Positions 6,243 to 44,828 of a stretch of 64,000 nucleotides of DNA are shown in pieces; the stretch's first letter is position 1, and each line of letters begins with the position of its first letter. The DNA is from Octopus vulgaris (taxonomy: Eukaryota): assembly GCA_951406725.2 (NCBI GenBank), contig OX597826.1, positions 72,540,001 through 72,604,000 of the forward strand. The letters run 5' to 3'. The translations under genes were made by a program, and so were the position numbers. The notes under the pieces are model-generated. The model ran no database searches, was not told where the DNA came from, and saw only the letters and a program-made list of their open reading frames with translations.

Positions 6243-6245
<3 letters not shown>

Positions 6246-6537
6246 ATAAATATTAGGGAATAAATCCAAATTTACAGGGGAAAATCAGATTTAGGATTGA
6301 ATCCAATTTTATAGTAAAATATAATATAATATTAATTAGAGACAAAACTTCATAGTTCAAAATTGCATAGAAGGTCTTGAAACCACCTGATGAATGTCCA
6401 TTGAAGTGACAAGAAACGATCGTAGTGGATATCTTAATTATATTTAATTTATATAAAATTTTTATGTATTGGATTAAGTCTTTCTTTGTTTGATTTGCAT
6501 AATAGTGGTTTTGTCTCTAATTAATATTATATTATAT
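6243..6537 (+). mobile_element. Penelope-like (pLTR-derived) fold-back cassette in (TA)n, family P1
   Basis: (TA)n on both sides, perfect 30-bp inverted arms at 6319-6348 and 6508-6537, an internal hammerhead, and a second family member at 39439-39645. Confidence 0.7.
6383..6428 (+). ncRNA. Minimal type-I hammerhead ribozyme motif
   Basis: CCAC-CUGAUGA-A-UGUC(loop)GACA-A-GAAA-CGAUCG-UA-GUGG. Stem I is CCAC/GUGG, the core is canonical, stem III is the palindrome ACGAUCGU and the cleavage triplet is GUA. Confidence 0.75.
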
Positions 6538-6556
6538 ATATATATATATATATATA

Positions 6557-6719
6557 AAATGGGCTTCTTTCAGTTTCCGTTTACCAAATCTACTCACAAG
6601 GCTTTGGTCAACCCGAGGCTATAGTAGAAGACACTTGCCAAAGGTGCCACGCAGTGGGACTGAACCTGGAAGCATGTGGTTGGGAAGCAAGCTTCTCACC
6701 ACACAGCCACTCCTGCACC
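6557..6719 (-). mobile_element. SINE family A, 5' half
   Basis: Reverse complement of the head and body of 7235-7635. Confidence 0.8.
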
Positions 6720-6799
6720 AATATATACATATACTTTTTATTACTGTCATTACTTTAATACATATATATTTTTTCATCAGAGTTTTAACATTAACACCA

Positions 6800-7705
6800 C
6801 AATCCTCTTTCCCGATTCTCTTGTTGCCAACTTCCCATTTCCATGCCTTCTCACACACAATTCAATTACACCGCTACACCAACTTCCTACACCTTTACCA
6901 TCCCACACAGTCACACTCCATAACTGCACACTTTTTGCATAATTACACAAATTCCCCTGCAACAAAACACATGCACACACCTTCCCCTTATACTACTTTC
7001 AATACCTGGATACACCCTTTGTGTGTACTCCTTCCTTCCTTCCTTCCCTCCTTTCCTAACTCACCTATAGAACCACTTTCCCACCTGGCTCCTAACCCTC
7101 ACCCTTTTTCTTTTCCTCCTCCAAACATTTTTTTCCCATTCAGTCTTTATCTTTTTTCTCAATCGTTCTTCTGATGAAGGACCAGCATCTGAAACCCGCT
7201 GCTGTTTACTTTCTTTTCAAATGTTAAACTAATAGGCGCAGGAGTGGCTGTGTGGTAAGTAGCTTGCTAACCAACCACATGGTTCTGGGTTCAGTCCCAC
7301 TGCGTGGCATCTTGGGCAAGTGTCTTCTACTATAGCCTCGGGCTGACCAAAGCCTTGTGAGTGGATTTGGCAGACGGAAACTGAAAGAAGCCTGTTGTAT
7401 ATATGTATATGTATATATATATGTATGTGTGTGTTTGTGTGTCTGTGTTTGTCCCCCTAGTATTGCTTGACAACCGATGCTGGTGTGTTTACGTTCCCGT
7501 CACTTAACGGTTCGGCCTAAGAGACCGATAGAATAAGTACTGGGCTTACAAAGAATAAGTCCCGGGGTCGATATGCTTGACTAAAGGCGGTGCTCCAGCA
7601 TGGCCACAGTCAAATGACTGAAACGAGTAAAAGGGTAATACAACTTTTAACCAACCTTGTCCTTCCCATGTTTTTCTTCCGTGTTCATTACTTTCCTAAC
7701 ATTTG
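6800..7705 (+). mobile_element. Decayed pyrimidine-rich Penelope-like relic with degenerate hammerhead (CTGATGAAGGA..TCTGAAAC at 7171-7195), interrupted by a SINE
   Basis: A long pyrimidine-rich tract, then a hammerhead-like core, then GTTAAACTAATA|C, which resembles the 51882-52076 family. A mirror-image relic lies at about 54300-54620 (-). Confidence 0.4.
7235..7635 (+). mobile_element. Full-length tRNA-derived SINE, family A
   Basis: GGCGCAGGAGTGGCTGTGTGGTAAG (A box), GGTTCAGTCCC (B box), internal (TA)/(TG) tract and an AGTAAAAG-type tail, with a possible TAATA target duplication. Other copies at 18330-18717 (-), 26721-27166 (-), 31705-32119 (-), 33775-34178 (-), 52496-52858 (+) and 57215-57510 (+), plus fragments. 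Confidence 0.85.
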
Positions 7706-8244
7706 CATGTGTGTGTGTGTGTGTGTGTGCATAGGCAAGTATGCAGCTGTTGCCTGGTCAGACAGAGCAAAACAATAAACTCTGTTTTCAACACATTAAG
7801 GCTGGGCACCAATATATTGCTGATGTTATATTATCAACCATCCCAAAACCACAACTCAGAGACTTAACGTTTAGATCCAATGGTCAATGCTACTCTTAGT
7901 CTTAGGTCTGTCACAGCCCTACAGGCTCATTAGGCTGGAGTACATTCATGGCATATAAGAGTATAAGTTCTCTCCTGAACAGAATGACAGTTCATTTCAG
8001 GGTTATACTCCAGGTGAGTGGACTGGAGCAATGTCAAAAAATGAAGTGTTTTCCTCAAGAACACAAGCTACTCAGTCAGGGAATCAAAACTATGGTTGTC
8101 AGTCCAACACCCTAATCACTAGGCCACGTGACTTCACCAGAAGAATATATCTTTAACAACCCTGTGTAAAAGATCTGTAAGGTATTCACAGGGATTATTA
8201 CCAAGAATGTTTAGGATCCCCATTTTTGGCGATGGAATACCAAA

Positions 8245-8466
8245 TCATCATCATCATCATCATCATCGTTTAACGTCCGCTTTCCATGCTAGCATAGGTT
8301 GGACGGTTTGACCGGGGTCTGGGAAGCCAGGGGCTGCACCAGGCTCCAGTCTGATCTGGCAGAGTTTCTACAGCTGGATGCCCTTCCTAACACCAACCAC
8401 TCCGCGAGTGTAGTGGGTGCTTTTTATGTGCCACTTGCACAGGTGCCAGGGGTGTCTCACATCGGC
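8245..8466 (-). mobile_element. 3' tail of RTE-type LINE or derived element (family B) with (GAT)n end
   Basis: Matches the 3' UTR of the RTE relic at 20845-21697. More than 15 copies occur, e.g. 17095-17351, 29697-30095, 35735-36100, 39291-39425, 53661-53980, 56925-57204, 59500-59702 and 61598-61793. Confidence 0.8.
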
Positions 8467-8477
8467 TAAAATTAACG

Positions 8478-8530
8478 TTCCCATGCCGGGAATCGAACCT
8501 GGGCCGCCTGGGTGAAAGCCAGGAATCCTA
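8478..8530 (-). pseudogene. 5'-truncated tRNA-Glu(UUC) fragment
   Basis: The - strand reads TAGGATTCCTGGCTTTCACCCAGGCGGCCCAGGTTCGATTCCCGGCATGGGAA: anticodon arm with TTC, T arm and 3' acceptor strand of eukaryotic tRNA-Glu. About 19 nt of the 5' end is missing and replaced by (TA)n. It is followed by CGTTAATTTT. Confidence 0.85.
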
Positions 8531-8540
8531 TATATATATA

Positions 8541-8866
8541 TAAACCAAGAGAGAAGGTGGAGATAAGATTAATAAAAATTTATTAATAGATTGATAAGAC
8601 CTACTATTGTTTCAATTCTTTGCCTACAGCATAAAATCAATCAAATTTAATTTAATCAATTTGGTTAATTATTATAAGCCAAATTGATTTAATTAAATAA
8701 ATTTGATTGATTTGAAACGATTGTAGGTATTGTCAATGTATTAATAAAATTTGTTAATCTCCATCTTCTCTATTGGTTTTTATAATAATAATATAAATGT
8801 GTGTATACCTGTATTATAAGGCATTCAACCAGTCTAATCTTGGCTATGTTTATCCCTCTGATGTTT
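8541..8866 (+). mobile_element. Fold-back cassette in (TA)n, family P3, with hammerhead 3'-half remnants
   Basis: Imperfect inverted arms at about 8541-8616 and 8710-8782 plus an inner inverted repeat; GAAACGATTGTAGG at 8714-8727; (TA)n on both sides. Confidence 0.6.
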
Positions 8867-8906
8867 ATATATATATATATAAACAATAATAACAGATGGA
8901 TTGTGG

Positions 8907-9008
8907 TTCACTACAGCTGTTTCAGACATGTTTTTTATTGACAAACAGAAGTGCTACATCATGCAACACACCTCAAAAAAAAAAACACAATTGTTTTCAT
9001 CAGGTGAA
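8907..9008 (-). ncRNA. Type-I hammerhead ribozyme motif with extended stem II
   Basis: The - strand reads UUCAC-CUGAUGA-(73 nt, AAACA...UGUCU closing)-GAAA-CAGCUG-UA-GUGAA: perfect 5-bp stem I, palindromic ACAGCUGU stem III and a GUA triplet. Confidence 0.7.
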
Positions 9009-11051
9009 TAAGGTATGAATCAACAATTAGCACTTCAAAGATCAAGTAGATAGCGCTATATAACTCTACTGACTCAATGTCAGTATATATACTCAGAGAG
9101 ACACAGAAACTAATTGTATTAGCAGAATCATTAGAGCATGGGGAAAATGTCAAGCAGTGTTTGTGCTGGTTCATTACATTGCAAGTTCAAAATCTACCAA
9201 GGTCAACTTTGCCTTACATCTTTTTGGGGTTAATGAAATGAAGTACCAGTCAACTGTTAGAGTTGTTGTAATTGACTAAACCCTTTCCCTCAAAATTACT
9301 GGCACTTGTACCTAAATTAGAAATAGTCATTTTAGACTGGCGATCTACCCTGCTCAGTGGGACATTGGACAAATTGGCTTGCAACATTTAGTAACATCCC
9401 TTTTATGTTCTGAGTTCAGATCCTAAAGAGGTTGCCTCTGTGTTTCTTCCTGTCAAGGTTGATTTTAAAAAGAAGGGCCAGTAATTCACTAGTGTTAATT
9501 TAATCCCTTATTCCCAACCCACACATCTAAGGCCTAATATTATTAATTATGATAATGGTTTTTGATTTAGACACAAGGCTGGCAATTTTGAGGGAAGGGC
9601 TTCAGTTGATACCATCCAACCGAGTAGTTGATTGACATTTGATGTATCAATTCTGGAGGGAATGAAGGCAAAGTTGACCTTGGTAGGATTTGAACCCAGA
9701 AAGTAAAGGGATGGAAGAAATACTGCAAGGCATTTTTTCTGATGTTTTAATGATTCTGCCAGCTTGCTGCTCTTTTTGATGATGATAATGGTTTCAAATT
9801 TTGGCACAAAACGTGTAATTTCAGGGGAAGGAGTAAGTCAATTACATTGACCCCAGAGTTCAACTGGTGCTTATTTTATTGACCCGAAAAGGGATGAAAG
9901 GCAAAGTTTACCTCAGTGGAATTTGAACTCAGAATGTAACGTTGAACGAAATGTTTACCAATGCAGGTATAATAATTACAGAGGGGATCTCCTGGTCACA
10001 GACAGTTTACTGAGAATTTACAAGCCATTACTCTAAGCTGTAATAACGACCATGATGATGATGATAATAATAAGGTTGACTGCACTTTTCCAACAATCCA
10101 GAGAAAGCACTTAGGAAAATAAAACGAATATACAAATACATATGTGTGTTTGTGTGTGTGTTTGTGTGTGCATGTGTGTGTGTGTTTGTGTGTGCATGTG
10201 TATGTGTGTATAAACAATCTGATTGAAAAGATATACATTATATACACACTATGTATACGTGTGTATGTGTATGTGTGTGTGTGTGTATTTATAAATATAG
10301 ATATATATATATATAATGTAGTTATTTATATAAATTGAAAAGAACAAGTTGAAAGGTATCAAAAGACAAGCAAGAGTGAACAAAACACCTGTATTTAATG
10401 TTAAGTGAAGCTTTCTCTGTGTATATGAGAAAAAAAAAAGGGGGGAAATAAAACATAAAAAAGTTATAATCTCGATATCAGCTGGTGTAAATAATAAAAT
10501 GGAGTATAATGTATATCTGAGCATAGTATTGTACAGAGTAATATAGTTCAGTGTACATAAGTGCGGGAATGAAATTCGCTTAGGGGGTGCCAACCCAGTT
10601 TTTCAGGAGGATCTTCAAAGCATATTCATTGCCTACCAAAAATTTTAAAGGGTTCACTTGCTCCCCCTGCACCTGGTTCCTGAGCCTATGTGAATGTAAT
10701 GAATACTATACAGTGTTTACAACAGAGTAATGAAAGATATAGTGTGGTATAGTATGGTATAGTATAGATATAGTATGGTATAGTATAATCAGTATAACAC
10801 AATATAGCATAGTTTAATAATACGCTACAACATGGTATATAGTGTAATACAATGTGGTACTTATAGTATAGTATAATACCTGCCACAAAGTCCAGTCCTT
10901 GTTGCAGTGTAGGAGCTAGTGCACCTCAATGACTCTGAGAGCTGTACCTGTAGAGCACAAGCTCCAGATAGGGCTTCTATGCTGGACAGTCAAAGGATAG
11001 AGGCCAGGCTAATATGGATCCCCTCTTCCCAGAGGTTAAAAAGTAAGTTTA

Positions 11052-11452
11052 CATAGGGCCAAGATGTAGGTTTGCATGGGGCCAAGATGTAGGTTTGCAT
11101 GGGGCCAAGATGTAGGTTTGCATGGGGCCAAGATGTAGGTTTGCATTGGGCCAAGATGTAGGTTTGCATGGGGCCAAGATGTAGGTTTGCATGGGGCCAA
11201 GATGTAGGTTTGCATGGGGCCAAGATGTAGGTTTGCATGGGGCCAAGATGTAGGTTTGCATGGGGCCAAGATGTAGGTTTGCATAGGGCCAAGATGTAGG
11301 TTTGCATAGGGCCAAGATGTAGGTTTGCATGGGGCCAAGACGTAGGTTTGCATGGGGCCAAGATGTAGGTTTGCATGGGGCCAAGACGTAGGTTTGCATG
11401 GGGCCAAGACGTAGGTTTGCATGGGGCCAATATGTAGGTTTGCATAGGGCCA
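11052..11452. repeat. 23-bp minisatellite, about 17.5 near-identical copies (CATGGGGCCAAGATGTAGGTTTG)
   Basis: Direct head-to-tail units with no spacers. The ORF track shows a 23-aa periodicity in all three - strand frames. Confidence 0.95.
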
Positions 11453-12469
11453 GTCGTCTATGTTTCATAGGGAACAAAGGGCTGAAGTGAATAACAATAC
11501 AATGCAGTACACTACGATATAGCAAAATATAAAGTCAATAGTTTAATGTAGTAAAACGCGGTATGCTATATACAGTACTGTACAGCATGGTATAGTACAT
11601 TTACAATATAGTGTTTGGAATGTAGAACAGCTGTTTTGAAGCCCTAACTGTTAGGGCAACATGACCCACTATAAAAGTGGGAGGTAACCCGTCACTCTTA
11701 TATGGTGAGGTTCAGCCCATACTGGGTACATTGGGCATCTTCTAACAAACTGTGTCTAAAGTTGCATAACAGTGGCATGGTGGTGGAGAAGGAGAGAGTG
11801 AGGGAGAAAGGGGTGGTGGCAGCTATGGGATATATATGTATATACACATACGAGAGAGCGGGAGCATAAGTGATATTTACAAAGATAGATATGTCACATG
11901 TGAGTAAGTTACAGTGTTTGTTGTTGAAGTGTTAAAATTAAGGTCAGCTGTTTCGTGTTTGTTGGGTTTAAAAAGTGAAAACAACAACAATGTTGAATAC
12001 ATGTGTATGTATATATATAAATATACATACATATACACACACATATATATATATATATATCTGCATGTGTGTGTATATATATATATATCTGCATGTATGT
12101 ATATATATATATATATATTTGCTTACAAACTTACAAAGAAAAAAAAAAGACCTTCACCAGTAAGTAACACAACATACACAAACACATATACATTTATAAG
12201 CATGAGTGTTCACACCTAGACACACACACCAGCCTTATTGTTATTTGTTTTTGTTATCAGACTATAAGCTAACTTGCAATAAAAAAAAGTGATTATAGAA
12301 GGCTGAAATGATTTATTGTTGAAGTAGAACGACTTTTGTAAAAGGAGAAGGTGTATGGGTGGATCAGGGTGTAGAGAGGGTATTTTATAAGACTTTGTAG
12401 TAAGGTAAATATAAACACTGATTTACAAATATTAAATGTTTATATGGTGGTATGTACTGTAGTTAAAGA

Positions 12470-12610
12470 AATAATGCAGGAAATATGAAATAATGTTGGA
12501 AAATGTGAAATGGTGTAGAAAATATGGAAATAGTGTTGGAAATTTGAAATAGTATAGTAAAATGTGAAATAGTGAATATGTGAAAGAACCTATTATGTGA
12601 AATAGTGTTA
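12470..12610. repeat. Degenerate ~20-bp tandem repeat (AAATGTGAAATAGTGTTGG-like)
   Basis: About six imperfect units visible. Confidence 0.55.
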
Positions 12611-13681
12611 TAATTCTTTCTACTATATGCACAAGGCTAGAGGGGTACCTAGTTGATTACATCAACCCTCAGTACTCAACTGGTACTTATTTTATCAACC
12701 TTGAAAGAATGAAAGGTAAACTTGACCTTGGTGGCATTTGAACTCAGAACTTAATCGGTTGGAAGGAATACTTCTAGGTATTTTATCTGCATGCTCTAAC
12801 AATTCTGCATGCTCATAATGATATGTGAAGTAACAGGGGGATATGCAACATAGTGAAACAGTCACCAAATACACACACTTTTTCCAACTGATATAAACAA
12901 CTAAATCCACTCCCAGATGTACTGAGATTAACACAGGAACAGAATGTCTCAAATGAATGGAAATAGTGCCTTTTCACACAGGATTAAGTACTACAATTGG
13001 GATTGTGCGCACCAGGAAGGAGTGTTCATATGTTGCAGCTGTATTCTAGACAATTTGAACATTTCAAATGCCATACTTCAACCTGGTCAGAGTCTATCAA
13101 TATTTAGACCCAAGTCTAAACTTCGATTATCTAAACTTATGATCAATAATATTCCAGCTGTGACAACCCATTTTTTAAGGGCTTTGACACAAATTATATT
13201 ATCTAATTAAGGCAGAAGTTTGCTTTCCCTAGTTAAGACAGAGGTTTGAAATTTGAGGAAAACTGGGCAGCTATTTCTAGCAAGTCAATTACTTGGCTGG
13301 AGATATCTATTACTATTAGCCTGAGGTGAACTTCAATGAAATGTGTTATAATCTCACCTATGGCTATGAAATCAACTTAGCTGCGAAATGGCTATGAAAT
13401 CAGATTAGAAGTTATGAGTTCAAGTCTACCATAGTTATTGCCTTAATTTTTCTTCTATGTGACTCAGTTGAGCTAACTGTAAGAAATAGAGAATCTTACC
13501 CCAGTTACAGATGTCTTATCCAGCAGCACATTTGCCTCATCTGTTTAATACCATAACACTGAAACTCAGTACCTTAAAAGATCTTTGAGTCTTTGGAGAT
13601 ATTTGCATTTATTTTAAGCTGCCTGTCAAGGTATACTGTGGTTCCCCATTTCAAAAATTACACACACACACACACACACAC

Positions 13682-13715
<34 letters not shown>

Positions 13716-16169
13716 ATCACATCACGTGACCGACCAGTCCATCAGATGTAGTTACACATCGCTGGTCACAATGCGTTCGCATTATTTTAGCCCTAACCAC
13801 TAGGCTATTGCGCCTCCACTATATATATATATATATATATATAAAACTGATATTGGTGAATACTAAACAAGTTAAGCAATAATATAGTTGCCCCCTTGCT
13901 AGCTCATTTGATTCAATAATATACTGAAGACAAACATGTCTTCAAGTCAAACTAATTTCTCATCCTACTTAAAAAATAGCCATCTAAACACACCGACCTC
14001 CTCATATCACACTCTGTGACATGAGTGTGGAAGGATGAAAAAGAAAATTGATGAGTGGGTGAGATTAGAATTTAGCAGAATTAGTAAGAATCATTAAATA
14101 CATCGAGTGAAAACGAAATCAGCAGGCAGCTCAATGAATCAACTGACGCTTCAAACACCAGCCAATTACTCATATTTGGAAGTCAGGTTTATAAAAAGAA
14201 CATCAAGTGTTTTTTTGTCCTGTAATCAACTTGGTACAACAACCAAAACAGCTGACGTGTTTCAGATGATTCAATTTTCTTCTGATCACTCTGAATTATC
14301 CAGGAGACTGAACAAGGTCTATTTGTATGGATGGAAATTATGCTGTAATTGGCAAGAAACCTCGATTCTTTGCTCGGGTCAAAGAGAAAGCTCTACATGT
14401 TTTCACTACATGCTGTATTCTGCATGACACAGTTCTGGTATCCAAAACACTGTTCTAATAATAAACTTGTTCTAATAATAAATAAGTTTGTTTTTCTTTG
14501 AGGGAGCCAATTCTACTATTTTCTTCAACCAAGTCACAACACCAGTTTTACCTGTGGGAGTGTTTTATAATCAAACTAATAAACACCTTTCATATACTTC
14601 TCTAAAATAAAAAAGTCACTTCCCACCATCATACCCTGTCAGAACTCAACCTGTCTCAAGGCAAACAAACATTTGTATTCCACCTGTCCTCTTTTTGATA
14701 ATCAACTATGGCATACTACTGGTACCTTTTTACATAAATCACTGAATATTCTATGTCAAAGATAACGGCAGCTGGGATTGAACTGAGAAATTCAATATTA
14801 TAGACTAGATATTGTAACTGTGAAATATAAGGATTAGTCATATCCTACATTTTTCAGAAAAATGTGCATGTGTGTGTGTGTGTATATATATATATTTATA
14901 TACACATGGTGCTCAGTTGTCTTTGCTGTTTACTCACAGTTCAAAGATGTTCCAACTGTAACCATTCTGTCTTTTATTCAATCCGAATATATTGATGTCT
15001 ACATGACCATCAACATCATTTAGTGTCTGTTTTCCATGCTGGCATGGGTTGAACAGTTTGACAAAAGCTGACCAGCTGAAGAGGGCTGTTCAAGCTCCAT
15101 GTCTGTTTTGGCATGGTTCCTACAGCTGGATGCCCTTCCTAACACCAACTATTTTACAGAGTGTACTGGATGCTTTTTATATGGCACCAGCACCTATGAG
15201 ATTAGGGATGCTCAGCTGGAGGGAACTGCAGAGGACAAGCCTGTATGCAAGGGCAACCACCACAGTAAACCGCCAGGAATCTCAGTCCCCTATCATCCCC
15301 TCTGTGAGTCCCAACGTCTGTAGATCCTTTCTCACCACTTCATCCAATACATGTCCTTTTAGACTACAAGGTGTGATTTGATAGAAATTTCTCTGCTGTT
15401 TGTAGCAGGTCAAGTAGAGGCTCTTTAATAGAATGTAAACATGGTTCATAGGTGGTTGTTATAACACACACACGCACAATATAAATTTCTGTAGCTCTAA
15501 TTCAATTACCATGTTTTGCACCAGTGTTAAGAAGTGTTTGTATGTTTTCGCAGCAAATTTATATGAAAAATATTGAGACAAGAAGTGTTGTCACTGCTGT
15601 ATGCAATTCAGGATTGACTAATTACCAGTAGTCAGTCATTTGAACTTCGAAAGATCTTAGCAGCATGTTCTATTGATGTTAAGTGCCAGCTGAATATCTC
15701 AACAAACTTGTTTACAATATTGGAGGAATTGTACAGAACTATGACTTTCATTAGCAGACATAGATCACAATGATAGGAAGGAGTGAAAGGATGGAAGTTG
15801 TAATAAGGAAGAAAGATGAAAATAGACAGCCGAAAAAAAAAAAGAAGAAAAAAACAGAAAAAAAAGGAAATTAATAGAAGATGAAATAAGTAAAGACATG
15901 AAATCATGGAATAGAAGATGAACATTTAAAGGAAAATAAGATGAAGAAGTGAGAAGAAAGAGTAAATAAATGAGAAGAAGTAAAAAAAAAAGAATTTTAT
16001 CAATTACAATTTTGCTGGGTATATACTGTATGTATGTATGTGTATGTATACACACACACATCTATACATACATACATATATACATACATACATGCACATA
16101 CATACATACATACATACACACAGATATATATATCTTCGATACTATTTTTATATTCTCAAATGCCCTGGA

Positions 16170-16760
16170 GGACCTTTAGAGGTATGAGATGGTTTCTGTT
16201 ATCTAGGTGACCTAATTAGCAGTGGAAGAGGATGTTCTGAAAGTATAGTAGCCAGAGTAAGAACAAGCTGGAGGAAGTTCAGAGAACTACTACTTCTGTT
16301 GGCAAAGAAAAAGGTTTCTCTCTCAGAGTGAAAGACACACACTGTATGATTACTTGTGCACAAACTGCAACACTACATGGTGGAGGGACATGGGCCCTGA
16401 ATGAAGAAGACTGGCAAAGAATGACAAAGTACAGATGTGTTGAGAGAAAAACTTGGCATAAGAAAAATCAGATGTAGTGTACAAGAAAGAAGATCGTGTT
16501 GGTATGGGCATGAAATGCATATAGATGAGGACAGCTGTATAAAGAGGCACAGATTGTTTACAGTGGGTGGAATCTGTGGAAGAGGGAGACCAGGAAAGAT
16601 GTAGGACAAAGTAGTGAAGGCCAAGGTCTTCAGTGAAACGTATCAAGTCATGGAGAGATGATACCTTACTGGGAAATAGAAAGGACATCCGGCTGTAGAA
16701 TGACTGTCTCAGCAGATTCTGAGTGACCCATGCAAACATGGAACAACAGACTTGAATACT
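16170..16760 (+). pseudogene. Heavily decayed RTE LINE 3' fragment
   Basis: Collinear with 20845-21250 (TTGAGAGAAAAACTTGGCATAAGA...GTTGGTATGGGCATG...GAGACCAGGAAAG) and ends in the family B GGACATCCGGCTGTAGAA motif. Confidence 0.6.
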
Positions 16761-32119: not shown

Positions 32120-32258
32120 AACTAGTAACTAACTGATGAAGATTTGAGATATGAAACAAGTTGTAATTTGTGAAGTTCCAGTTTCAAAATTTATATATTC
32201 CTCTTCTTTGTTGCCATCCGGCTATCTATCTGAGGCTTTATTTAGCTATGGTGCAACC

Positions 32259-33683: not shown

Positions 33684-34297
33684 CAGCGGTTCTCAACTGT
33701 GGCTTCCAGGGCCACATATGGTCCTCAAACATCCTTCTGGCTGTCCCCAACAGTCCTCTCTCCTTTTCTTTTGTCTTTTCTTTTACTTGCTTCAGTCATT
33801 TGACTGTGGCCATGCTGGAGCACCCCCTTGAAGGATTTTAGTTGAACAAATCAACCTCAAGACTTTTCAGTATTATTTTTAAAGCCTGGTACTTATTCTA
33901 TCCACCTCTTTGTCAAACTGCTATGTTATGGGGGATGCAAACACACAAACACTGGTTGTCAAGGGGTGGTTGGAGACAGACACAGACAGAAGGCCACACA
34001 TACATCCACAAATGCACACACACACTCACATGATGGGCTTTTTTCGGTTTCCATTTGCCAAATCCACTCACAATGCTACAGTAGAAGACACTTGCCCAAA
34101 ATGCCATGTAGTGAGACTGAATCCAGAACCATTGTGGTTGGAAAGCAAGTTTCTTACCATACAGTCATACCTGCACCTATAATTGAAATAAACTTTTCTT
34201 AAATTGACTTGTGTTTTACCTTTTTTTTTGGTGTGGTCCCCTGAAAAAAAACTGGCTTTGGGTCTGGTCCAGATATTAAAAAGATTAAGAACCCCTG
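33684..34297. mobile_element. hAT (Charlie-like) MITE with a nested SINE A
   Basis: TIRs CAGCGGTTCTCAAC and ATTAAGAACCCCTG; flanks CCCTAAAC and TTCTAAAC form a decayed 8-bp TSD; SINE A is inserted at about 33775-34178. Confidence 0.65.
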
Positions 34298-34435
34298 TTC
34301 TAAACACTTGATTCTACCTGTCCCACTTCACCTAATTGTTGGGAAATGTTAATCAATCTTAAGAGAATGTTACTTATGAGTAACTAGTATTCCCTCCTGA
34401 AGAATGGTTATTTCATTCATTTTTTATTTATTTAT

Positions 34436-34739
34436 TCGCCCTTTTCAAGCCTAGCCAGGCTCATGGGCCCGGTTTCCTGGTTTCTATGATGTATGTGTTC
34501 CCACCAGCTGGAAGAGACGCCAGTCCATCGCAGTATTACTCAAGAAACAGGAAGAAAGAGTGAGAGAAAGTTGGGGCGAAAGAGTTCAACAGGGGTCGCC
34601 CCCCCCACCCCTGCCGGAGCCTCGTGGAGCTTTAGGTGTTTTCGTTCAATAAACACACACAACGCCCAGTCTGGGAATCAAAACCTGATCCTCCGACCGC
34701 AAGTCCGCTGCCCTACCCACTGGGCCATTGCACCTCCAC
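34436..34739 (-). mobile_element. tRNA-headed SINE, family D-related, with GCGATGGACTGGCGTC domain
   Basis: Reverse-complement match to 52862-53155; A and B boxes present. Confidence 0.8.
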
Positions 34740-35220
34740 ATTTCATTCATTTAATATCATAAAATTGCCAAGTCGGCTTCTGCAGGGCTGACTAGGACTA
34801 CACAACAACAACAACAACAATAGTAAGCATGAAACCAGTCTTTATGGATTTTCAAGACTTTTTTCAAATAGTTTGGTCTGCATGAAGAAGCTGTGCCCAT
34901 GATCTTTGCAGACCCTCTAGCACCAGTATGACTGATGCCATTGATGCTCTTGAACAATAGTGAGTCAATGACTACAAGAGAAATATGAATTAGGAAGAGC
35001 TTCCAGAGGTCTGCCTTGTGGATAGCAAGAAGTGGAAATAGTGGTGGGACCTATAGAGTATACACAATGTGGGTGACGAGACAAAGAGAAAGGAGTGGGT
35101 TGAGTGGTCATGAGTAGAAGAGGAATGAGACCAGAAAATCTGAGGAACAGAGGCCATTGCTGCAGTGGTAGAAAGGCAGACAATAAAACAGCATGTCTTG
35201 CTGGTCAGAGATTGCTGTGT

Positions 35221-35330
35221 GTTGGTGGGTGACTTCATACTAATTAGTTCTAATCAGTGACTTCATACTAATTAGTTTAAATCAGCAACTTCATGCTAAT
35301 CAGTTGGTGGGCGACTTCATACTAATGAGT
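35221..35330. repeat. 26-28-bp tandem repeat x4 (GACTTCATACTAATTAGTT core)
   Basis: Four adjacent copies of ACTTCAT(A/G)CTAAT.AGT. Confidence 0.8.
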
Positions 35331-36779
35331 GGTTATTATCTGCATATGAGTAAGTATGAATGTATATACATCCGTAACATTGTCTGAAATAAGGAAGCAT
35401 TATTCCATTATAAGTCTCACTTATGCGTTTTAGAGAGTCAACAGCCAATGAGAGCTGAAGTATTTTCTGGCATCAGAAATGAAGGCAAGTCTTTAGGATG
35501 TTGTACATTTGATGTACCATTTGTTGCAATTTTGCTGGTTTTAATTGCGTGTTGTTCATGACTAGGTGTGGTGGGTTACAAAAGTGTTTCCTTCATGTAT
35601 TCAGTGGTTATGTCTTTATGTTATTGCAAAAGGCAAAATTAACGCAACACTATAAGAAGATATTTTCAAAGTTTCTATTAATAGGGGAAGTGCATGCTTG
35701 GCATCAGGTGTCGTATTTCATGCAGATGATTCTTCATCATCATCATCATCCTCATCATTGTTTAATGTCCGCTTTCCATGGGTTGGATGATTTGACTGAG
35801 GACTGGCGAACCAGATGGCTGCACCAGGCTCCAATCTTGATCTGGCAGAGTTTCTACAGCTGGATGCCCTTCCTAATTCCAACCACTCAGAGAGTGTAGT
35901 GGGTGCTTTTACATGCCACCGGCATGAGGGCCAGTCAGGCGGTACTGGCAATGATCTCATTCGAATCTTTGTACACATGCCACTGGCACAGGTGCCAGTA
36001 AGGCGACGCTGGTAACGATCACGCTTGAATGGTGCCTTTTACTTGTCACCGGCATGGAAGCCAGTTAGTCGCTCTGGCAACGATCACGCTCTTGAATGTG
36101 GTAAATTACAGAGAAGTGAATTACTTGAATAGGAATTGGTATTCTGAGAAGTGCAGCTCGTAGTTTTTTGGAGGAAGAGCATGAACACATAGATAAACCT
36201 TGAGGAACAGCACAATTGATAGACTATGGGTGAGAGAAAGCTCCACGGGGACATTCTACAAGGGTGAAATCTCATAGAAAGCTTTCATTTCAAAAGATGA
36301 GTAATGAATGGAGCCAATAGGTATGTGGTTGAGCTAAAAGATTTGCTTACTACCCATACTCAAAGAGAATTGCACAAAATTTTCTTTCTCTATTTCTCTT
36401 TTAATAATTTAGGGTTCTAAAGCAGAAAAAGTGGAATTCTGACTAAATGTGTTCCAGAATTTAACATAATTCCATTACTTCCTGAGTTCTAATTCTGCAA
36501 TGTATGACTTTGATTTTCATCTCTTTCGGCATCAATAAAGTGAGTTTTTGTTATACACAATAACTAATTCAATAAGATGTACTCTTTCTTTATATAATTC
36601 ATTTATCTGGTATCACTGAAGAATTAGTCATCATATATTGTATTTTGAGCAAGTTTCTCACACTCCAAGTTATATTACTCATAATGAGAGTTCAACTAAG
36701 CAGCTTAAGCTGATGAAAGACTTTTCCATATTGCCATTGCTTATGAGATCATTGCATGATTGCTTTTGGATGTGTGTGG

Positions 36780-37340
36780 TGTTGAAGGCAATTGTCATGT
36801 AATCTAGCTGGCTGTGTGTATAATGAATGAAGTAAACTCATGAACTTTTAACTCTTAACACATTTATTGCTGGACATGATTTACTGTATTGGCTGTTTAC
36901 AAAAGAAAGATGCTGATAATATAAAGCTGACTGGGAGAAGAGAACTGTTCTGTCATGAAGAAAGCTAGTTGTGGCACATCCTGTGTGGGAGTCTGAAGTT
37001 GTCTCTTGCTCACGGTGGCCTGTCTGAGTGTCCAAAGAGGTCTGGTCTGAGCAGTCTGTTTTCTGTGAGTGTCCAAGGTGGTCTATGTGAATGCCTGAGG
37101 TTGACTTCTCTTGCAGTCTGCTACAGCTGTCTATGTGAATGTCAAAGGTCGTCTGGCTGAGTTAGGCTCCCAATGGTTTTTATAGGGTGAAAAGGAGGCA
37201 AATTTTAGATCATCCAAGAAGCCATATTGCACCTCAGCTTCACATTGATTGGTCTATTTATAGATCAATCATATGAAATTGTGGAGGCTCATTTGTTATC
37301 TTGTGGTTGGGGTTCAGATCCCTTCAAGTTGTTCCTGACC
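36780..37340 (-). mobile_element. LTR-like element, copy 1
   Basis: Collinear with 40184-40712 and begins TGTTGAA. The - strand has TATAAAA followed downstream by AATAAA. Confidence 0.55.
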
Positions 37341-37434
37341 CTCAGTATCTATTGAAATCTAAATGGTCTGTGCCATTTCAGAAACAAATGTCATGACCAA
37401 AGACACAGTACAGTGACAAATAAGATATGAACTA

Positions 37435-38702
37435 TCAGGTCATCCCATAAGTTCTGTCCCAATTTTGAATAAAGAATACAAGTGATCAAATGTTATATTT
37501 AATTGAAATTTAATCATCAATGTACTTACCCTGATTATCTATGACTTCCTTCCATCTATTTATAAGCTTTTTAATCCTATCAATGTAAAAACACTTTTGG
37601 TTTCAAAGTGAAGAACTCTGAAATGTCAGTTTTGCCCTCTTTCTGGCTTGCGAAAGTTATGTCCCCCAAATGATTCTGTAAACTACGAAACAAATGGAGC
37701 AAGGTTGGGAGAATAAAGTGGATGAGGAATTTTTTCCCAACCAAGCTCTTCAATCTTTTGTGATGTGATCTTTGCAGTGTGGGGTCACGTATTGACCTGA
37801 TGAAACATCACTCCTTTTCAATTCACTAAAGCGGGTCTTTTTTCTTCAAAGCTTGGTTCAACCACTCTAGTTGCTGACAGTAGACTTGAGCATTGATTGT
37901 TGCATTAGGTGGTAACAATTCAAAGTGAATTACTCCTTTGCAATCCCACCAGATAGAGAGAACCTTTTTACCATGAAGTTCCCTTCTTGGATGTGGTTGA
38001 GCTTTTTTCCCTTTTACCAAGCCACTGTTTATAACATTTAACATTTCGATAGAAGATCCATTTTTCCTCACCAGTTACAAGTCTATCCAAAAAGGGTGAA
38101 ATGAGTTTGCGAGAATGGAGAGAAGAACAGATGTCAACTTGGGATTTGCAGTTGCTTGCGGACAATTCATGAGGCACATTTTCCAAGTTTAGGAACCTTT
38201 CCAAGTTGTTGAAGATGACGATGAACAGTTGTATGGTTTTAACTAAGCTTTATTGCCAATTCTTTAACTGATAATGCAGGATTTTCTTCAAGTGATGTCT
38301 CAAGGAGCTTATCATCAAACAGGACATCCTGTTCGATCTTATCTTCAAGGCTGAAATCTCCACTTCTGAATTTTGCAAACCATTTTCTGCAAGTTCTTTC
38401 ATTCAAGTATTCTTTCCCATAAACTGAGTGTATGTTTTGAGTTGCTTTGGCTGCAGAGTTTCCTTTTTTGTACTCATAAAGCATTATGTGCCTCAAATGC
38501 TCTTTGGATACTTTCATGTTAGAAAGGGTTTGAATCAAAGAAATTTTAATTCTATTCTTCTGTAAAATAATATTTAATTAGTTTAAATGCACACAAATGC
38601 ATAAAAATATTTTTTAATTCCATTAGACATTCTAAAATACTATTAAATTTCATTCAATTTTAAAAAAAGGTAAAATCGGACAGATCTCATGGGATGACCT
38701 GA
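37435..38702 (-). mobile_element. Full-length (~1.27 kb) mariner DNA transposon, decayed
   Basis: TIRs TCAGGTCATCCCATAAGTTCTGTCC and GGACAGATCTCATGGGATGACCTGA, with TA on both sides (37433-34 and 38703-04). Confidence 0.93.
37510..38517 (-). pseudogene. Frameshifted mariner transposase
   Basis: Fragments in different frames: MKVSKEHLRHIMLYEYKKG...WFAKFRSGDFSLED, VPHELS, LVTGEEKWIFY, IWWDCKGVIHFELL...YCQQL, and a C-terminal GKYIDD*. The first catalytic Asp appears as Glu (TGEEKW). Confidence 0.92.
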
Positions 38703-38929
38703 TATTTACCTCTTGGCAGCTTGTTTTACATCATCAATTTGTCCATTTGTTCTTCTTGAGCCAATATAAGAAATCAATGATTTAAAGTGCTCTGTATTGT
38801 TGTAGTTATTATGATTAACATGTTGAGGGATCGATAGGAAAAAGAATCATCTTCAACAATGTTATTACTAACAGCTAATATTCTTGTGTACATATAGATA
38901 TATATGTACACAAAAAAAAGTTTTTTTAT

Positions 38930-39278
38930 AATTATAAACATGATTAAGGGATTAGCAAAAAGTTGCTTCACCACATACCGAAAATTTAGAAATACCAGTC
39001 AAAACTACTAATTCTTTTGATACAATATATCTTCACTGACAGTAATACTCGCAACTCAAATAGGCAAAAAAAAAGAAAAAAATAACGAAACTATACAGCC
39101 TTCATGAATCATGTACACGTTTCGGGATTAGAATTGTAAAATTCATTTCCTTCGTCAGCATGATATTCGAGATTATAAATTTGAAAGTGCTAACATAATT
39201 CATGCATGTTTGATCAAGAGACATCAAACATAACATAAGATAAACAGCATTTCCGAATTTATATATAAATGCGGAAAT
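38930..39278 (-). mobile_element. Penelope-like relic (family P5) between AT-rich/(TA) tracts carrying a hammerhead
   Basis: Contains the hammerhead at 39108-39164; the - strand 3' end reads GCTAATCCCCTTAATCATGTTTATAA. Confidence 0.55.
39108..39164 (-). ncRNA. Minimal type-I hammerhead ribozyme motif (best preserved)
   Basis: The - strand reads AUCAUG-CUGACGA-AGGA..GAAUU(UUAC)AAUUC..UCCC-GAAA-CGUG-UA-CAUGAU: 6-bp stem I, canonical core, near-palindromic ACGUGU stem III and a GUA triplet. Confidence 0.8.
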
Positions 39279-39438
39279 ATATATATATATCATCATCATT
39301 TAGCGTCCGCTTTCCATGCTAGCATGGGTTGGACAGTTCAACTGGGGTCTGTGAAGCTGGAAGGCTTCGTCAGGCCCAGTCAGATCTGGCAGTGTTTCTA
39401 CGGCTGGATGCCCTTCCTAACGCCAATATATATATATA

Positions 39439-39645
39439 ATAATAATATTAGGGAATAAATCCAAACTTACAGGGATAAATTAGATTTAGGATTAAATCCA
39501 ATTTTATAGTATAAATATATTATATTATATTAAATTAGAGATAAAACCACTATTAGGCAAATCAAACAGTGAAAAACATAAGCCAATACATAAAATTAAT
39601 TAAGATTTGCCTAATAGTGGTTTTATCTCTAATTTAATATAATAT
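39439..39645 (+). mobile_element. Fold-back cassette in (TA)n, second copy of family P1
   Basis: Perfect 42-bp inverted arms at 39522-39563 and 39604-39645; homologous to 6243-6537. Confidence 0.75.
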
Positions 39646-39957
39646 ATATATATATCTGTATATATACATACAATATAAAATTTGTTGTATGCAAGGTACA
39701 TGTTTGAATTAAGAAATAATGAAACTACTGAAAGACACAGTAACAGATTTTTGTATAAATGTAGGACAAGGCTTCTAGATATGACAAGAATAATCTCTTG
39801 GAGAGAAATTTGAGGGTGAACACTATCTTATTAAATGGGTGTCTAAAGACACATAGCCCTTGCCAACAGTAGGAAGTTGTCATACTTTGTCACCAATGCC
39901 ATGAGAGTGCTTGTTCACCATTGTAGTGGGTCTGCAATGGTGAATGTGTGTGGTATT

Positions 39958-40172
39958 AAGGCGGTGAGCTGGCAGAATTGTTAGCATGCTGGATGAAATG
40001 TTTAGCAGTATTTTGCCTGTCGCTATGTTCTGAGTTCAAATTCCATTGAGGTTGACTTTGCCTTTCATCCTTTTGGGGTCAATAAATTAAGTACCAGTTG
40101 AACACTGGGGTTGGTGTGATTGACGATCCCCCTCCCCCAAATTTCAGGCCTTGTGCCTATAATAGACAGGAT
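39958..40172 (+). mobile_element. SINE family C (central GCCTTTCATCCTT.GGGGTC.ATAAA.TAAGTACCAG domain, resembling the MetaSINE domain)
   Basis: GGCGGTGAGCTGGCAGAA head and GAGTTCAAATTCC B box. Many copies, e.g. 1900-2060, 9180-9950, 12630-12815, 20270-20410, 27790-28100, 42410-42605, 53220-53430, 56200-56400, 58130-58740 and 62825-63040. Confidence 0.75.
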
Positions 40173-40183
40173 ATGTGTCGTAT

Positions 40184-40712
40184 TGTTGAAAACCATCTTC
40201 ATGTGGTCTAACTGGTTGTGTGTATTATAAACAAAGCAACTCATGAGCTTTTAACTTTTAACACATTTATTGCATTGGCTGTTCATGAAATAAAGATGCT
40301 GGTAATATATCTACGAACTGAGAGAAGAGAACTGTGCTGTGTCTGTAGAAGGCAGATGTGGTGCATCTTGTGTGAGTGTCCTAAGTAGTCTCTGGCACAA
40401 GGTGATCTGTCTGAGTGCTCTAAGCTGTCTGTCTTAGAGATCTGTTGAGGCTGTTTGCCTTACTCACTTTCCTGAAGTTATCTAGCCCCTTAACAGTTTG
40501 CTGTGGCTGTCTACCATACTCTCTTGCCTGAATTAGGCAACAGTTTTTAATAGGGTGAAAATTGTAGGTCATCTGAGGAGCCAAATCACATCAAAGCTTC
40601 ACATAAATTGGTTTATTTTTAGATCAATCATGTGAAACTGTGGTGGCTCATTTGCAATGCTTAACTGAATACCTTGAGATTGGGGTTTGAATCCCTACAA
40701 AGTATTCCAACA
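40184..40712 (-). mobile_element. LTR-like element, copy 2 (TG...CA)
   Basis: Ends TGTTGAA and TTCCAACA form short terminal inverted repeats; about 530 bp. A partial third copy lies at about 40740-40900. Confidence 0.6.
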
Positions 40713-41081
40713 AAGAGTTGAACTCTGTGAATTCTATAAACATCATGTGTGAGTGTCCAAAGCCATCTCTTTCTCAAGGTGGTTTGTCCAAGTATCTCAG
40801 GTGGTCTGGTCTCAATGGTCTGCCTTGTGTGTGTGTGCCCTAAGTGGACTATGGAACTGTCCGAAGCTGTCTGTCTTAGCAGTCTGCTGAGTTTGTTTGC
40901 CATATTCTAAAAAGTTTTAGAATATTTCATGAGACTTTTAAGTATGAAAATTAAACTTTTCTTTTTGTGTGTCAGAGCCCATAAAAAAAAGATGGTTTGT
41001 TGGAAAAAATGTCAGTAGGTGTTAAGTTACAATTAACTCTGGTCAACATTACCAAATATAGCAGTATTATTGAATATTACT

Positions 41082-41506
41082 ATAGGTAGTGTGTAACGAT
41101 TTTCTTCACTACTTCAGGGAGTGACGACCCTGCCTGATATGAGTCCCGGGCTCAGCTGGCTCCTGCTGACAGTACCCGGTATGGGCCCCTATCCAGGGTT
41201 ACGGAAAGGAGATATCCTCCAAAGAAATCTGGAGTGGAGCCCTGTAGGCGGTTTAATGTTCGACTCGACACTGTTCCGGTAGCTCCTGCAACCAAGGTGG
41301 TGCCAAACGTAATGCTCTGCACTCCTTTAGACTACGTCAGCAAGGTCGAGAGAGGATTCCTGACAATTGGGCTACCCAGGACTTTCTTATCTCTAGCCCA
41401 GGCCTGCACAAAACTGGAGAAGACATGAAATGTAAAAACCAGACTGGATTAGTTTATGCACAACTCCATTGTCTCCCGAGACAAAAGGATGCCAACAACA
41501 ACAACA
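41082..41506 (+). mobile_element. GC-rich short retroposon with (ACA)n tail and 13-bp TSD
   Basis: Perfect flanking duplication ATTGAATATTACT at 41069-41081 and 41507-41519; CAACAACAACAAC tail; no ORF of note. Confidence 0.75.
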
Positions 41507-43375
41507 ATTGAATATTACTGGTAATAGTAACCACTATAGTAATATTATTTGCCAGTAGTTTTCACTTTCAAACTTTGGCTTTGAATTTGAGGAAGACTAT
41601 CTGCTATACTATCATAAATGTGTGAAACAAAAACAATAAGCAATTAGATATCTGAATTATTTTCACACAACTTTCCTCAGGAAATTTCTTTTCAGCATTA
41701 TGTGGCAGAACAAGATTTTCCCATTGATATAGCTTGCCCAAATCCTTGGCCTCTACTTTATAAAATACTTCTGTTCTGATCAGTTAGCGATCCCTTGTAA
41801 AGATCAAGAGTGACACACATTAAAATGGTGTTCATATCTCTGGGTTACTGTTCAGCCATATACAGAAGCATCTTACTTGATTAGTAAAATTTCATTTATC
41901 AATGGGCTCTAATAATGGGGCTCAGACACTAAATTATTCACTCGTTCTTTCATTTATTCTTTCATTTCTAAGAGAGAAGGTTCAATCTCAGTACTGTAAG
42001 ATACTAAACCACACAGTTAAGTTGCTCTCTATCAATAAGTTATTCTCATCTGATAACGTAGCCAGCTAAAATGGGATGCTGTGGAGCTTTGTATCTTGCT
42101 TGGACACAGCATATTCCCAGGGATGGAATATAAACTCACAACCCTAAAGCTTCTTTACTTCAATAATCGCGCTTTCACACCCTAGGTATGCTGGTGATCA
42201 AGTTACATTGTGTATTGACTAAGTGATGTAGTATACTGATCCAGTCATATAGAGCACCGTCACATGGGATCGAACCAAATCGTTGGGGATCAAATGAATA
42301 AAATGCATTCACAAAAAAGTTTAGACTGCAGAAAAATTACCCCCACCCCACAAAAAAGCCCCACTGCGATGGTGAGACAAGAAAAAAAAAATGCTAAAAC
42401 TATTGACGATAAGGCGGGCTGGTAAAATCTTTAGTATGCCGGATTAAAATACTTGGAGGCATTTCGTTCGTCTTCACATTTTGAGTTCAAATTCCGCCGA
42501 GTTCGACTTTGCCATTCATCCCTTCGGAATTGTACTGTGGTCGATGTAATCGACAAGCTTCCTCCCCTAAAAGAATTTCCGGCCTTGTGTCTATAATAGA
42601 AAGGATATGATACATCAGGGTTCTGAATCTGTCTTATGCGACCGGAGAACTTCTTTCGTCCAAGTTCTTTGGTTTAAACATCTTTTCCCACCTAATTACT
42701 TTAAGTTAATTCTATCTAAACACCAATAATTGTTCAATTCCATTCACTGAGAACATCTACGTATATCTCTCCCTCATCTCTCTTTGATGTCATCTTCTAC
42801 GGCCCCTTCTTTATCTACAACTTTTCTTGACACGAGCCAGTGAAGAAGACTCTATGTGGTTCGATCTGCTAGAAATAGCAGCCAATTTACCCTCAGATCA
42901 CACCCTTCAATCATTAAAAAAAATGGTACATTGGATATTGTAGCCTGGAATGCACCGTGCGTGTATGTTCTTTAAAAAATGACGAGATAATAATTGCCAG
43001 AATGTTGCAAGTCACATCTTTTCAATCGGGGTTGATCGGTGGGGTTGGCAAAACAAGTAATTCTTGACACTCGTGATCCCACCCCCACCCCACCACCACT
43101 ACCGGCACTGATGTCGTAAAGGTTAAATTATTTGTTATTCTAAACTATCTGCACCAGTTTTTATCCTCACCTACCCGTATCCCTTGACTGACACACCAAC
43201 ATTCCAAATATACCCTTTATATCTTTCTCAACTCCAGCACCAGCCTTCACCCGATTGTCACTGTTTCTGCCCCCAACGAATCATTTGATAATTGACTAAT
43301 CAAAACAACACGCCTCACAAGATTTTTTTTTTTTTTTAAATGCATAACAAGTTCGTCCTATGAACCCTTCTAGTA

Positions 43376-43613
43376 CAATGGTTCTCAACCAAGGCCCATA
43401 TAAAATTTCGTTAAAATTTTTATCTGCAATAAATTGCTTAAACTTCTATAATACTCAAAATATTTTAATAATTTTTTTTTTTTACAATTCCAAATAATAT
43501 TTAATTATAGAAATAAAACGGGATTTTTAAACATCGATTGGCTAAGAGTACATCCGACTAAAATAGGAATCAAAGGGTCTATAAATAAATAAAATAATAG
43601 TTGAGAAACACTG
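43376..43613. mobile_element. hAT (Charlie-like) MITE
   Basis: TIRs CAATGGTTCTCAAC and GTTGAGAAACACTG; 8-bp TSD TTCTAGTA / TTCTAGAA (NTCTAGAN-type target). Confidence 0.8.
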
Positions 43614-44251
43614 TTCTAGAACTTAAAATAAGCTAAGTGGACAATGCACTGTCAGTCCTGGATCGATTGCTCATAATAACTATTACAGATAGAAATATTC
43701 CAAGGTCTAATCTCTACTAGTAGTCATACTTCATTGAAGCCCCCAATATTCTGGAGAAAAGCACGAAATAAATGCAATTACAATTTAATTTCTCGACACA
43801 TCTGAAACTATTCATAACATGGTGCATTATTAAAATTAGTGGAGTTTGCAGCCTATAGGATTCAGAGATTTAGATTTCACTAATTTGATTTCGTCTCTAT
43901 AATTGTGATGTCAACTTTAAAAGCACTCCGCCGTCTATTTTCTACCTCTAATGCGGGATTGATTAAATAAACAATTAGTAATATACTAGGGTTCACATGT
44001 AACACAACAAACGAGACCAATGTCTGTAAAACAATAATAACCTTGTCTTTGAGAAAAGCGAACTTAAAGAGACCGATTCTGTGTGATTATGTAAGGTATG
44101 GGCAGACAATTCAGACCAAGTGCTTCAATTAAATAAAACACTCAGTGTTGCACGCACGCACGCACACACATCGGGTGCCTGTGTGTGTATACATATAGAC
44201 AAACACATACATATATGTGTGTGTGTGAGCATACACACACATATATACATA

Positions 44252-44560
44252 CTAGCAGTATCGCCCAGCGTTACTCGGGTTTGTTTCGACCCTTTAGAAT
44301 TGGAATTTTTGAAAAGTAAAAATTTTGCATTATGTAGCTTGTTTATTCTCTTTAAGTGAGCATTTTTCTGTTGAAATACACCGAAAAATTGTGACACAGC
44401 AGTCAAAAAATCGTAAAAAATAGGGATTTTCATAGGAAAAAAAAGCACCTTTTTGATATAAATACTTTTTGGTGTTAACATGGTCTGACTTGAATTTTAT
44501 TTTCTACGGAATGAAGAGCAAACCTTCTTCTATTATACTCTTAATTTTGGTCAACTTGCA
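44252..44560 (-). mobile_element. Helitron-type 3' end, truncated at a (TA)n tract
   Basis: The - strand ends with a CCCGAGTAACGCTGGG hairpin followed by CGATACTGCTAG|T. Confidence 0.65.
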
Positions 44561-44573
44561 ATATATATATATA

Positions 44574-44828
44574 ACTTTAAAATAAGGGTGAGAAATTAGA
44601 TATTAATTTAATTAACATCGATTTCACACCAGTGATCTAGCATAAAAAAAAAACTGAAGGTTCAGTAAAATTGTATTATATGCATATTAGAGGGAACCCA
44701 CTATGTGGACACCCTTATGCTAGAAATAGATATCCGCTATGGTCTTACCACTAAGAAATGTTCTCAAGAACCATAGCGGATCTATTTCTAGCATAAGGGT
44801 GTCCACATAGTGGTTTCCCTCTAATATG
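44574..44828 (+). mobile_element. Fold-back cassette in (TA)n, family P2
   Basis: About 63-bp near-perfect inverted arms at 44683-44746 and 44766-44828, (TA)n on both sides, and one arm extended by about 110 bp. Confidence 0.7.

Follow-up and report, generated by a model that had tools for sequence, protein, structure and literature searches.

The stretch analysed here, henceforth called the window, comprises 64,000 nucleotides of the Octopus vulgaris contig OX597826.1 (assembly GCA_951406725.2, positions 72,540,001 to 72,604,000) and contains four short palindromic cassettes (C1 to C4), which were assigned to three families of element ends (P1, P2, and P3) related to Penelope-like elements (PLEs). 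Each cassette probably represents a separate insertion of a PLE end, in which one arm was started at an inner site (S) and the other at an outer site (L) through two-site priming on sense RNA. This interpretation is carried by a genome-wide census of arm end points, by the sequence that each arm holds to itself, and by the exact loss of an intron from short P1 arms.

Cassette architecture and pairing of the arm end points

All four cassettes consist of two arms arranged head to head, with the sense 3' ends pointing outward into (TA)n and one arm being longer than the other. The original prediction of four such cassettes from three families was borne out, with long-arm extensions of ~76 bp (C1), ~80 bp (C2), ~79 bp (C3), and ~103 bp (C4). 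C1 is composed of an L arm on the minus strand (6243..6348, tail 6243-6318, 5'-truncated at template position ~166) and an S arm on the plus strand (6345..6537), which begins at a putative transcript 5' end and shares a central overlap of 4 nt with the L arm; the two arms overlap by only ~30 bp on the template because the L arm is strongly truncated at its 5' end. (TA)n borders C1 at 6205..6242 and 6538..6556. C3 belongs to the same family (87-89% identity) and represents a second P1 subfamily, with an L arm on the minus strand (39439..39601) that stops short of the hammerhead and an S arm on the plus strand (39604..39645); both P1 short arms end at the same internal AT patch, as had been claimed. 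C2 (P2) and C4 (P3) showed no relation to P1 or to each other above shuffle level. C2 comprises an S arm on the minus strand (8541..8684) and a long arm on the plus strand (8659..8866), and its centre falls within the long stem II hairpin and is ambiguous for that reason; the long arm stops at a middle TA patch, ~25 bp before the usual L end of P2. In C4, the L arm on the minus strand (44574..44770, tail ~44574-44676) derives from a hammerhead-bearing tandem unit of ~540 nt, and the S arm on the plus strand lies at 44766..44828. A contig piece of 204 nt in run X3 (organism B) covers C2 positions 8640-8843 including the centre without differences, and a contig in run X7 (organism D) holds part of C2 (8559-8681); C2 is therefore no assembly artefact.

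The families, each of them abundant, were searched for in the host genome of the window (2.8 Gb), which yielded 1915 (P1), 208 (P2), and 2585 (P3) first-look candidates that are not to be read as copy numbers. Identical arm ends recurred in dozens of copies, far more often than chance would allow, and every family showed ends at an inner position (S) and at an outer one (L) genome-wide, i.e., the end points mapped over genomic copies were two fixed 3' positions and not random ones. To avoid bias, blind samples were gathered with queries containing neither the S nor the L end. Among the 40 places sampled for P1, 24 were S+L, one was S+S, and none was L+L, with three having an unclassifiable end and 12 a single arm. 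The P3 sample (30 places) contained ten S+L and neither S+S nor L+L pairs, plus four with an unclassifiable end and 16 single arms; the P2 sample (28 places) contained four S+L, two S+S, and no L+L pairs, plus three with an unclassifiable end and 19 single arms. Pooled, S+L accounted for 38/41 classifiable two-arm insertions (p = 5e-9 against 0.5, the most favourable case of independent choice), a figure from which 47 copies with a single arm and 10 two-arm cases, in which one end could not be classified, are excluded. Inspection by eye revealed that the tail of one P2 "S+S" pair is interrupted by a short interspersed element (SINE) and that two P1 copies counted as single do have partners. 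The inverted arm of 10 P1 copies, long or mixed, ended at S and their main arm at L. The fixed 5' end seen in 40/40 P1 places is partly a selection effect, because the query used for them extends across the splice junction. Three loci (L021, L173, and L186) carry a duplication of the last 15-27 nt at the P1 L end, and P3 L ends carry a 6-nt unit in varying number; both are possibly products of slippage at initiation.

The same layout was found in family A, an intact and very young PLE of the same genome with an open reading frame (ORF) of 781 aa that encodes a reverse transcriptase (RT) and, at the C-terminus, a GIY-YIG domain. One example is locus L220 (G000:C16:20834500-20841000), and there are many others, with a Neptune-like cysteine linker; in L220, a hammerhead-like motif with a U3-A8 core variant was recognised by eye, and a frame of ~479 aa that lies upstream and overlaps the ORF has no Pfam matches. 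S and L of family A both lie inside the junction between the 5' pseudo-long terminal repeat (pLTR) and the ORF, 40 bp apart, and the template continues to the ORF start. Family A arms mostly end at S, which was also the commonest end among copies 100% identical over the query, and all four inverted pairs were S+L (three among 30 loci, plus L225). As automatic de-duplication over-merged this family, its counts were not taken from that step.

Relation of the arms and loss of the P1 intron

In C1 and in 7 of the 24 blind P1 pairs, the S arm contains 5' sequence that is absent from the L arm, while the L arm contains the tail. Since each arm thus has sequence that the other lacks, neither was copied from the other in these cases; together with the S+L pairing, this sustains the earlier proposal that both strands are primed. 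Arms of the same insertion were closer to each other than to other copies in 17/19 P1 (1.4% vs. 3.2%), 22/28 P3, and 11/13 P2 cases, which fits copying from one template molecule. At filler-free junctions, at least 2 nt (2-6 bases) were shared in 13/18 P1 and 10/14 P3 cases, compared to ~24% expected.

Long P1 copies (19/20; one donor mutated) contain an intron of ~1.1 kb (664-1956 bp) bounded by GT(A) and AG, located between the first ~27-38 nt of P1 and the hammerhead part. In short P1 arms, including that of C1, the intron is gone and the exons are joined exactly. A total of 64 such arms were identified; in C1, the exon-1 part (6347..6373, plus strand) is joined straight to exon 2 at 6373/6374, the splicing being deduced from this exact loss. 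Letter-for-letter matches to the 26-nt exon signature of a long copy were found for 38/64 spliced arms, and 8/9 long-copy signatures have a spliced counterpart, including subfamilies that share only AG at the intron ends; hence, the loss recurred across P1 subfamilies and history. Several P1 palindromes are spliced in both arms. Almost all spliced arms (63/64) extend at most 40 nt past the junction on its upstream side and end close to an initiator-like motif, and 28/29 P1 copies extending further upstream keep the intron. Judged from these genomic copies, short P1 arms were likely copied from spliced sense RNA.

The exact loss also bears on self-priming. Under this view, one arm serves by fold-back as the template of the other, or an antisense template is used as proposed in PMC3846280 (text available in part), with joining at the TA-like S patch. 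As an account of the cassettes in general, this published hypothesis is unlikely. It would explain why the arms of one insertion share variants and why some centres are near-perfect palindromes (ties in 6/24 P1 pairs). However, it is contradicted for the class with the longer S arm, i.e., C1 and the 7/24 blind pairs with arm-unique sequence in both directions, and the exact removal of a sense-strand GT-AG intron from 64 arms, which points to a sense and spliced RNA as template, is not expected from antisense copying. Self-priming could still hold for pairs with the longer L arm.

Site choice, proposed mechanism, and remaining alternatives

The original prediction placed the start of the long arm at the RNA's true 3' end and that of the short arm at an internal TA-like microhomology. 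In its general form, with one cDNA started from the true 3' end and the other at any TA-like microhomology that allows target annealing, this explanation is improbable. Ranked by TA alternation, S falls within the top 1-8% of template windows in each of the four families, so that the TA-like character of the short-arm end stood; L falls within the top 2-3% for family A and for P1, a third TA patch forms the end of C2, and no continuation of the template past L was found in P1 or P2. Against this, the P3 template extends beyond L into the next ~540-nt unit in 25/30 loci and, as described above, that of family A runs on as well, so L is internal where this could be tested (P3 and family A), which contradicts a start of the long arm at the true 3' end there. 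Moreover, the L end of P3 lacks TA-like character, with 21% of windows scoring no worse, and equally or more strongly alternating upstream patches are left unused (five in family A, two in P1), so microhomology alone does not pick S. We infer that S and L are positional sites and that annealing to (TA)n is at most a helper. Folding of the S-L regions revealed no common structure among seven windows (one of which, aimed at the P3 hammerhead, was misplaced), with only P3 reaching z = -3.0. A candidate motif shared by P1 and P3 before S was rejected, as it did not exceed shuffles (62/300 as good), and no other family pair was significant.

A third possibility is that the insertions were originally symmetric L+L palindromes that afterwards lost one tail when the internal TA patch slipped against the (TA)n flank; this is very improbable. 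(TA)n arrays are unstable, and the middle end of C2 could have arisen in this way, but not a single L+L pair occurred among the 41 blind pairs, which included copies 97-99% identical, and S prevails even among the 100%-identical family A copies. The notion of miniature inverted-repeat transposable elements (MITEs) that carry terminal inverted repeats, duplicate a TA target, and multiply as complete units accords with the short, palindromic, TA-inserted form and is nevertheless refuted by asymmetric ends in place of fixed symmetric terminal repeats with a conserved interior, a conserved hammerhead, exact intron loss, long copies that run into RT and GIY-YIG frames, and centre break points that differ between copies, from which it follows that the cassettes are made anew each time.

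Two-site priming on sense RNA would proceed as follows. The enzyme would nick both strands of the (TA)n target, as has been shown for PAc (Poseidon, Anolis; see below), and, acting as a presumed dimer with one site per strand, would start one cDNA at S and the other at L, i.e., at two fixed internal sites of the sense RNA. Both cDNAs would be extended toward the RNA 5' end, probably with strand displacement on one RNA. They would not stop at the same point, and a head-to-head joint, in many cases containing some shared or filler bases, would link them. S and L would probably be set by protein binding or RNA structure, and the TA-like bases at S likely aid annealing of the target 3' end rather than site choice. 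For P1, the template of the short arms would be a spliced transcript starting near the initiator-like motif ~38 nt before the intron, whereas long copies would likely derive from the downstream pLTR copy in a longer RNA, in which the intron is rarely removed. The short RNA might alternatively originate from a promoter in the 3' spacer of any long copy, which would leave the conclusion of a sense and spliced template unchanged. In L1 twin priming, cDNA synthesis likewise starts from both target strands, and short microhomology serves to join the products; the inverted and direct parts do not overlap there and the second site is variable, whereas the arms overlap and both sites are fixed in the present cassettes.

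An extension of this scheme, to which we give about an even chance, is that one PLE mRNA bears the pair of RT start sites twice, with the 5' pair giving rise to spliced, intron-less stubs and the 3' pair to the unspliced downstream pLTR. Intron retention, tail, and inverted pLTR would then all result from one sense-strand mechanism with a dimeric enzyme having one site per strand, requiring neither an antisense template nor selection for the intron. In family A, the starts of five copies fall at positions 85-99, ~30 nt downstream of a TATA-like motif and with no intron seen, and these starts fit the route from the 5' copy.

Several observations weigh against two-site priming or its extension. 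There are clear S+S pairs (L126 in P1; L140 among additional P3 loci), and many insertions have a single arm. The similarity of arms within an insertion could also be explained by gene conversion or by one master being active at a time. Filler or mismatch was present at 23/41 P1 and 32/46 P3 junctions, and once these were counted, junction microhomology was not enriched (p = 0.18 for P1, 0.69 for P3). Locus L361 contains one long spliced arm, the sole exception among the 29 copies extending further upstream. Splicing of P1 is read from DNA copies and not from RNA reads across the junction, and because both ends of the intron read AG/GT in the youngest P1 subfamily, its apparent splicing could be imitated by a template jump, although not that of the AG/AT subfamilies. 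The two-pLTR mRNA is carried over to P1 by analogy with family A, because a tandem 5' pLTR whose tail (L) enters the ORF was seen in 0 of 19 distinct P1 places and 0 of 28 long regions. Finally, no empty orthologous site was recovered from the flanks of 89 S+L insertions or from four DNA runs, the reads of which contained no empty allele (the raw-read run was covered to ~3%). The flank analysis yielded one paralogous empty-like site and gave no decision on de novo synthesis of (TA)n by the RT, which was also considered; truncated repeats next to TA runs fit 5'-truncated insertions into existing arrays.

Element families, known systems, and implications

The Penelope-like identity originally suggested held up, with RT-like and GIY-YIG-like frames and a hammerhead in P1 and, in P1, P2, and P3 alike, an inverted 5'-truncated copy with a one-sided tail. 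Long P1 copies contain, from upstream to downstream, an RT-like frame, a GIY-YIG-like frame, a microsatellite-rich spacer of ~2 kb, and the P1 end, with which a 421-aa RT-like frame in L392 and endonuclease (EN)-like frames in L393 and L396 are collinear. In the ESM Atlas, P1 frames matched RVT_1/HTH_animal clusters at 0.93-0.97 and, at 0.94, a GIY-YIG cluster in which 33% of the members bear the family; Pfam returned neither an RT nor an EN match for the P1 parent frames, and BLASTP of P1 frames against family A was not significant. Based on the order of the predicted RT and GIY-YIG frames upstream of the pLTR, P1 belongs to the EN-containing (EN+) PLEs. The parent frame in L392 has DKT in place of DKG, a feature by which the Hydra clade is defined in the available text of PMC8557442, and a CxCX5C linker as well as CxxC and CxH around the EN end, without CCHH, were recognised by eye in L393. 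The P1 parent is accordingly described as a PLE with Hydra-clade motifs, matched by motif over a frame whose N-terminus was not recovered. The chimeric long P1 copy L331/L371 (G000:C7:22032519-22036400) has its intron cut off, followed by a different GIY-YIG-like frame.

The P1 pLTR carries a predicted minimal type I hammerhead motif, which in C1 was located by alignment at 6383..6428 (plus strand; core, stems I and II, and palindromic helix III). Across 13 copies, the core and both stems were invariant and the loops variable, 98.6% of cells were paired, and the helix III palindrome showed one compensatory change, affecting both of its sides, in 5/13 rows. A search of the window against Rfam at gathering score returned no matches, including for the C1 motif. 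Hammerhead-like motifs in P2 and P3 were recognised by eye, that of P3 with a core variant. For P2, at least 0.8 kb of further T-rich upstream sequence was present in two copies and no parent was found. P3 is a non-coding unit of 515-546 nt, the end of which runs into its own start in 25/30 loci; copies mostly span 1-1.3 units, and no locus with two full units was seen. No RT-EN ORF of their own was found for P2 and P3, adjacent tblastn matches being neighbours or chimeras, and the DNA of P1-P3 showed no similarity to family A other than nested neighbours. Four RNA or RNA-like runs placed on P3 (one without placed reads) revealed neither circles nor ends and were uninformative.

Some P3 loci deviate from this form: L253 (G000:C6:127091556-127092746) contains eight to nine tandem 134-bp P3 pieces with a hammerhead motif in each, and L090 a 102-bp tandem of another P3 piece. 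Joints without TA were observed in L152/L281, where a P2 arm is fused to P3, in L246/L336, where a P3 arm is joined to an RT frame from a different PLE family (58% at the aa level to family A), and in L085, where P3 follows sequence resembling the 3' region of a third PLE family. These chimeras are possibly template switches, which would name the enzyme donors.

Regarding the surroundings of the cassettes in the window, ~70 bp of a SINE to the right of C1 (6556-6622) are repeated in inverted orientation on its left (6140-6205, 92%); an adjacent flank duplication of this type occurred in only 1/89 two-arm insertions and is hence no part of the mechanism. The minus strand at ~8468-8530, abutting the TA run of C2, resembles what we take to be the 3' part of a tRNA-Glu gene, and ARAGORN detected no tRNA at this position. 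A 23-bp minisatellite with 17.8 copies (96% matches) is located at 11043-11452.

Architecture, (TA)n bias, and hammerhead are already known for PLEs (PMC8557442, PMC3846280, and PMC4209133, as far as their text was available). EN+ PLE insertions described in the accessible parts of PMC8557442 and PMC3846280 share the head-to-head, inverted, 5'-truncated pLTR, the one-sided tail, the (TA)n targets, and the pLTR hammerhead with the present families. They differ in tail length (30-40 bp, compared to 76-110 bp in P1-P3 and 40 bp in family A), in the near-strict pairing of one S with one L counted here, and in the intron, of which these accessible parts describe only retention, whereas spliced stubs occur beside intron-keeping long copies in P1. 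For PAc, cleavage and extension of both strands in vitro, a predicted dimer, and initiation of reverse transcription from two internal sites, which lie close to the 5' end of the RNA and delimit the tail, are reported in the available sections of PMC11167929. The two internal start sites bounding the tail are thus shared; unlike here, where S, and L in family A, resemble (TA)n, PAc starts in an AC-rich loop without target homology and without strand preference between the sites, and pairing within one insertion is not addressed in these sections. With the Hydra clade, as covered by the text seen of PMC8557442, the P1 parent shares DKT, CxCX5C, CxxC/CxH, the C-terminal GIY-YIG, the hammerhead, and (TA)n, and differs by a non-coding 3' region of ~3.3 kb with an intron, clade elements generally being <3 kb. 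With Drosophila virilis Penelope, P1 shares a pLTR intron ~40 nt after the transcript start and just before the hammerhead (PMC2377424 and PMC4209133, partial texts); the P1 intron measures 1.1 kb instead of 75 bp, and while retention in D. virilis is explained there by selection, both forms of P1 are present in the genome, sorted by copy length. P3 resembles metazoan non-LTR (long terminal repeat) retrozymes as described in the accessible parts of PMC7229834 and bioRxiv 10.64898/2026.07.22.740005, i.e., it appears to be a permuted non-coding unit that is in part tandem and bears a type I hammerhead motif, and differs by unit length (~540 vs. 150-450 nt), core (CCGA vs. CUGA), and the predominance of 1-1.3 units over arrays.

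The origin of inverted pLTRs, tails, and intron keeping in PLEs is stated to be unresolved in the available text of PMC8557442, and the published account of head-to-head repeats is that of self-priming on an antisense template in Adineta vaga (PMC3846280, accessible part). A literature search of limited coverage, without most subscription papers or supplements, returned no earlier report of twin priming in PLEs, none of spliced stubs beside intron-keeping long copies, and no paper counting S+L pairing; texts outside this coverage may contain an earlier mention. The present data provide mechanistic evidence on two of these questions, insertion mode and intron keeping, since the large intron of P1 acts as a marker that records which RNA each arm was copied from. 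Two testable rules result: an insertion should pair a single S with a single L, and the intron should be missing only from copies whose beginning coincides with that of the transcript. Family A, with its 781-aa ORF and the same layout of S and L, lends itself to in vitro work on a PLE that targets (TA)n. In repeat annotation, palindromes of this kind can pass for MITEs.

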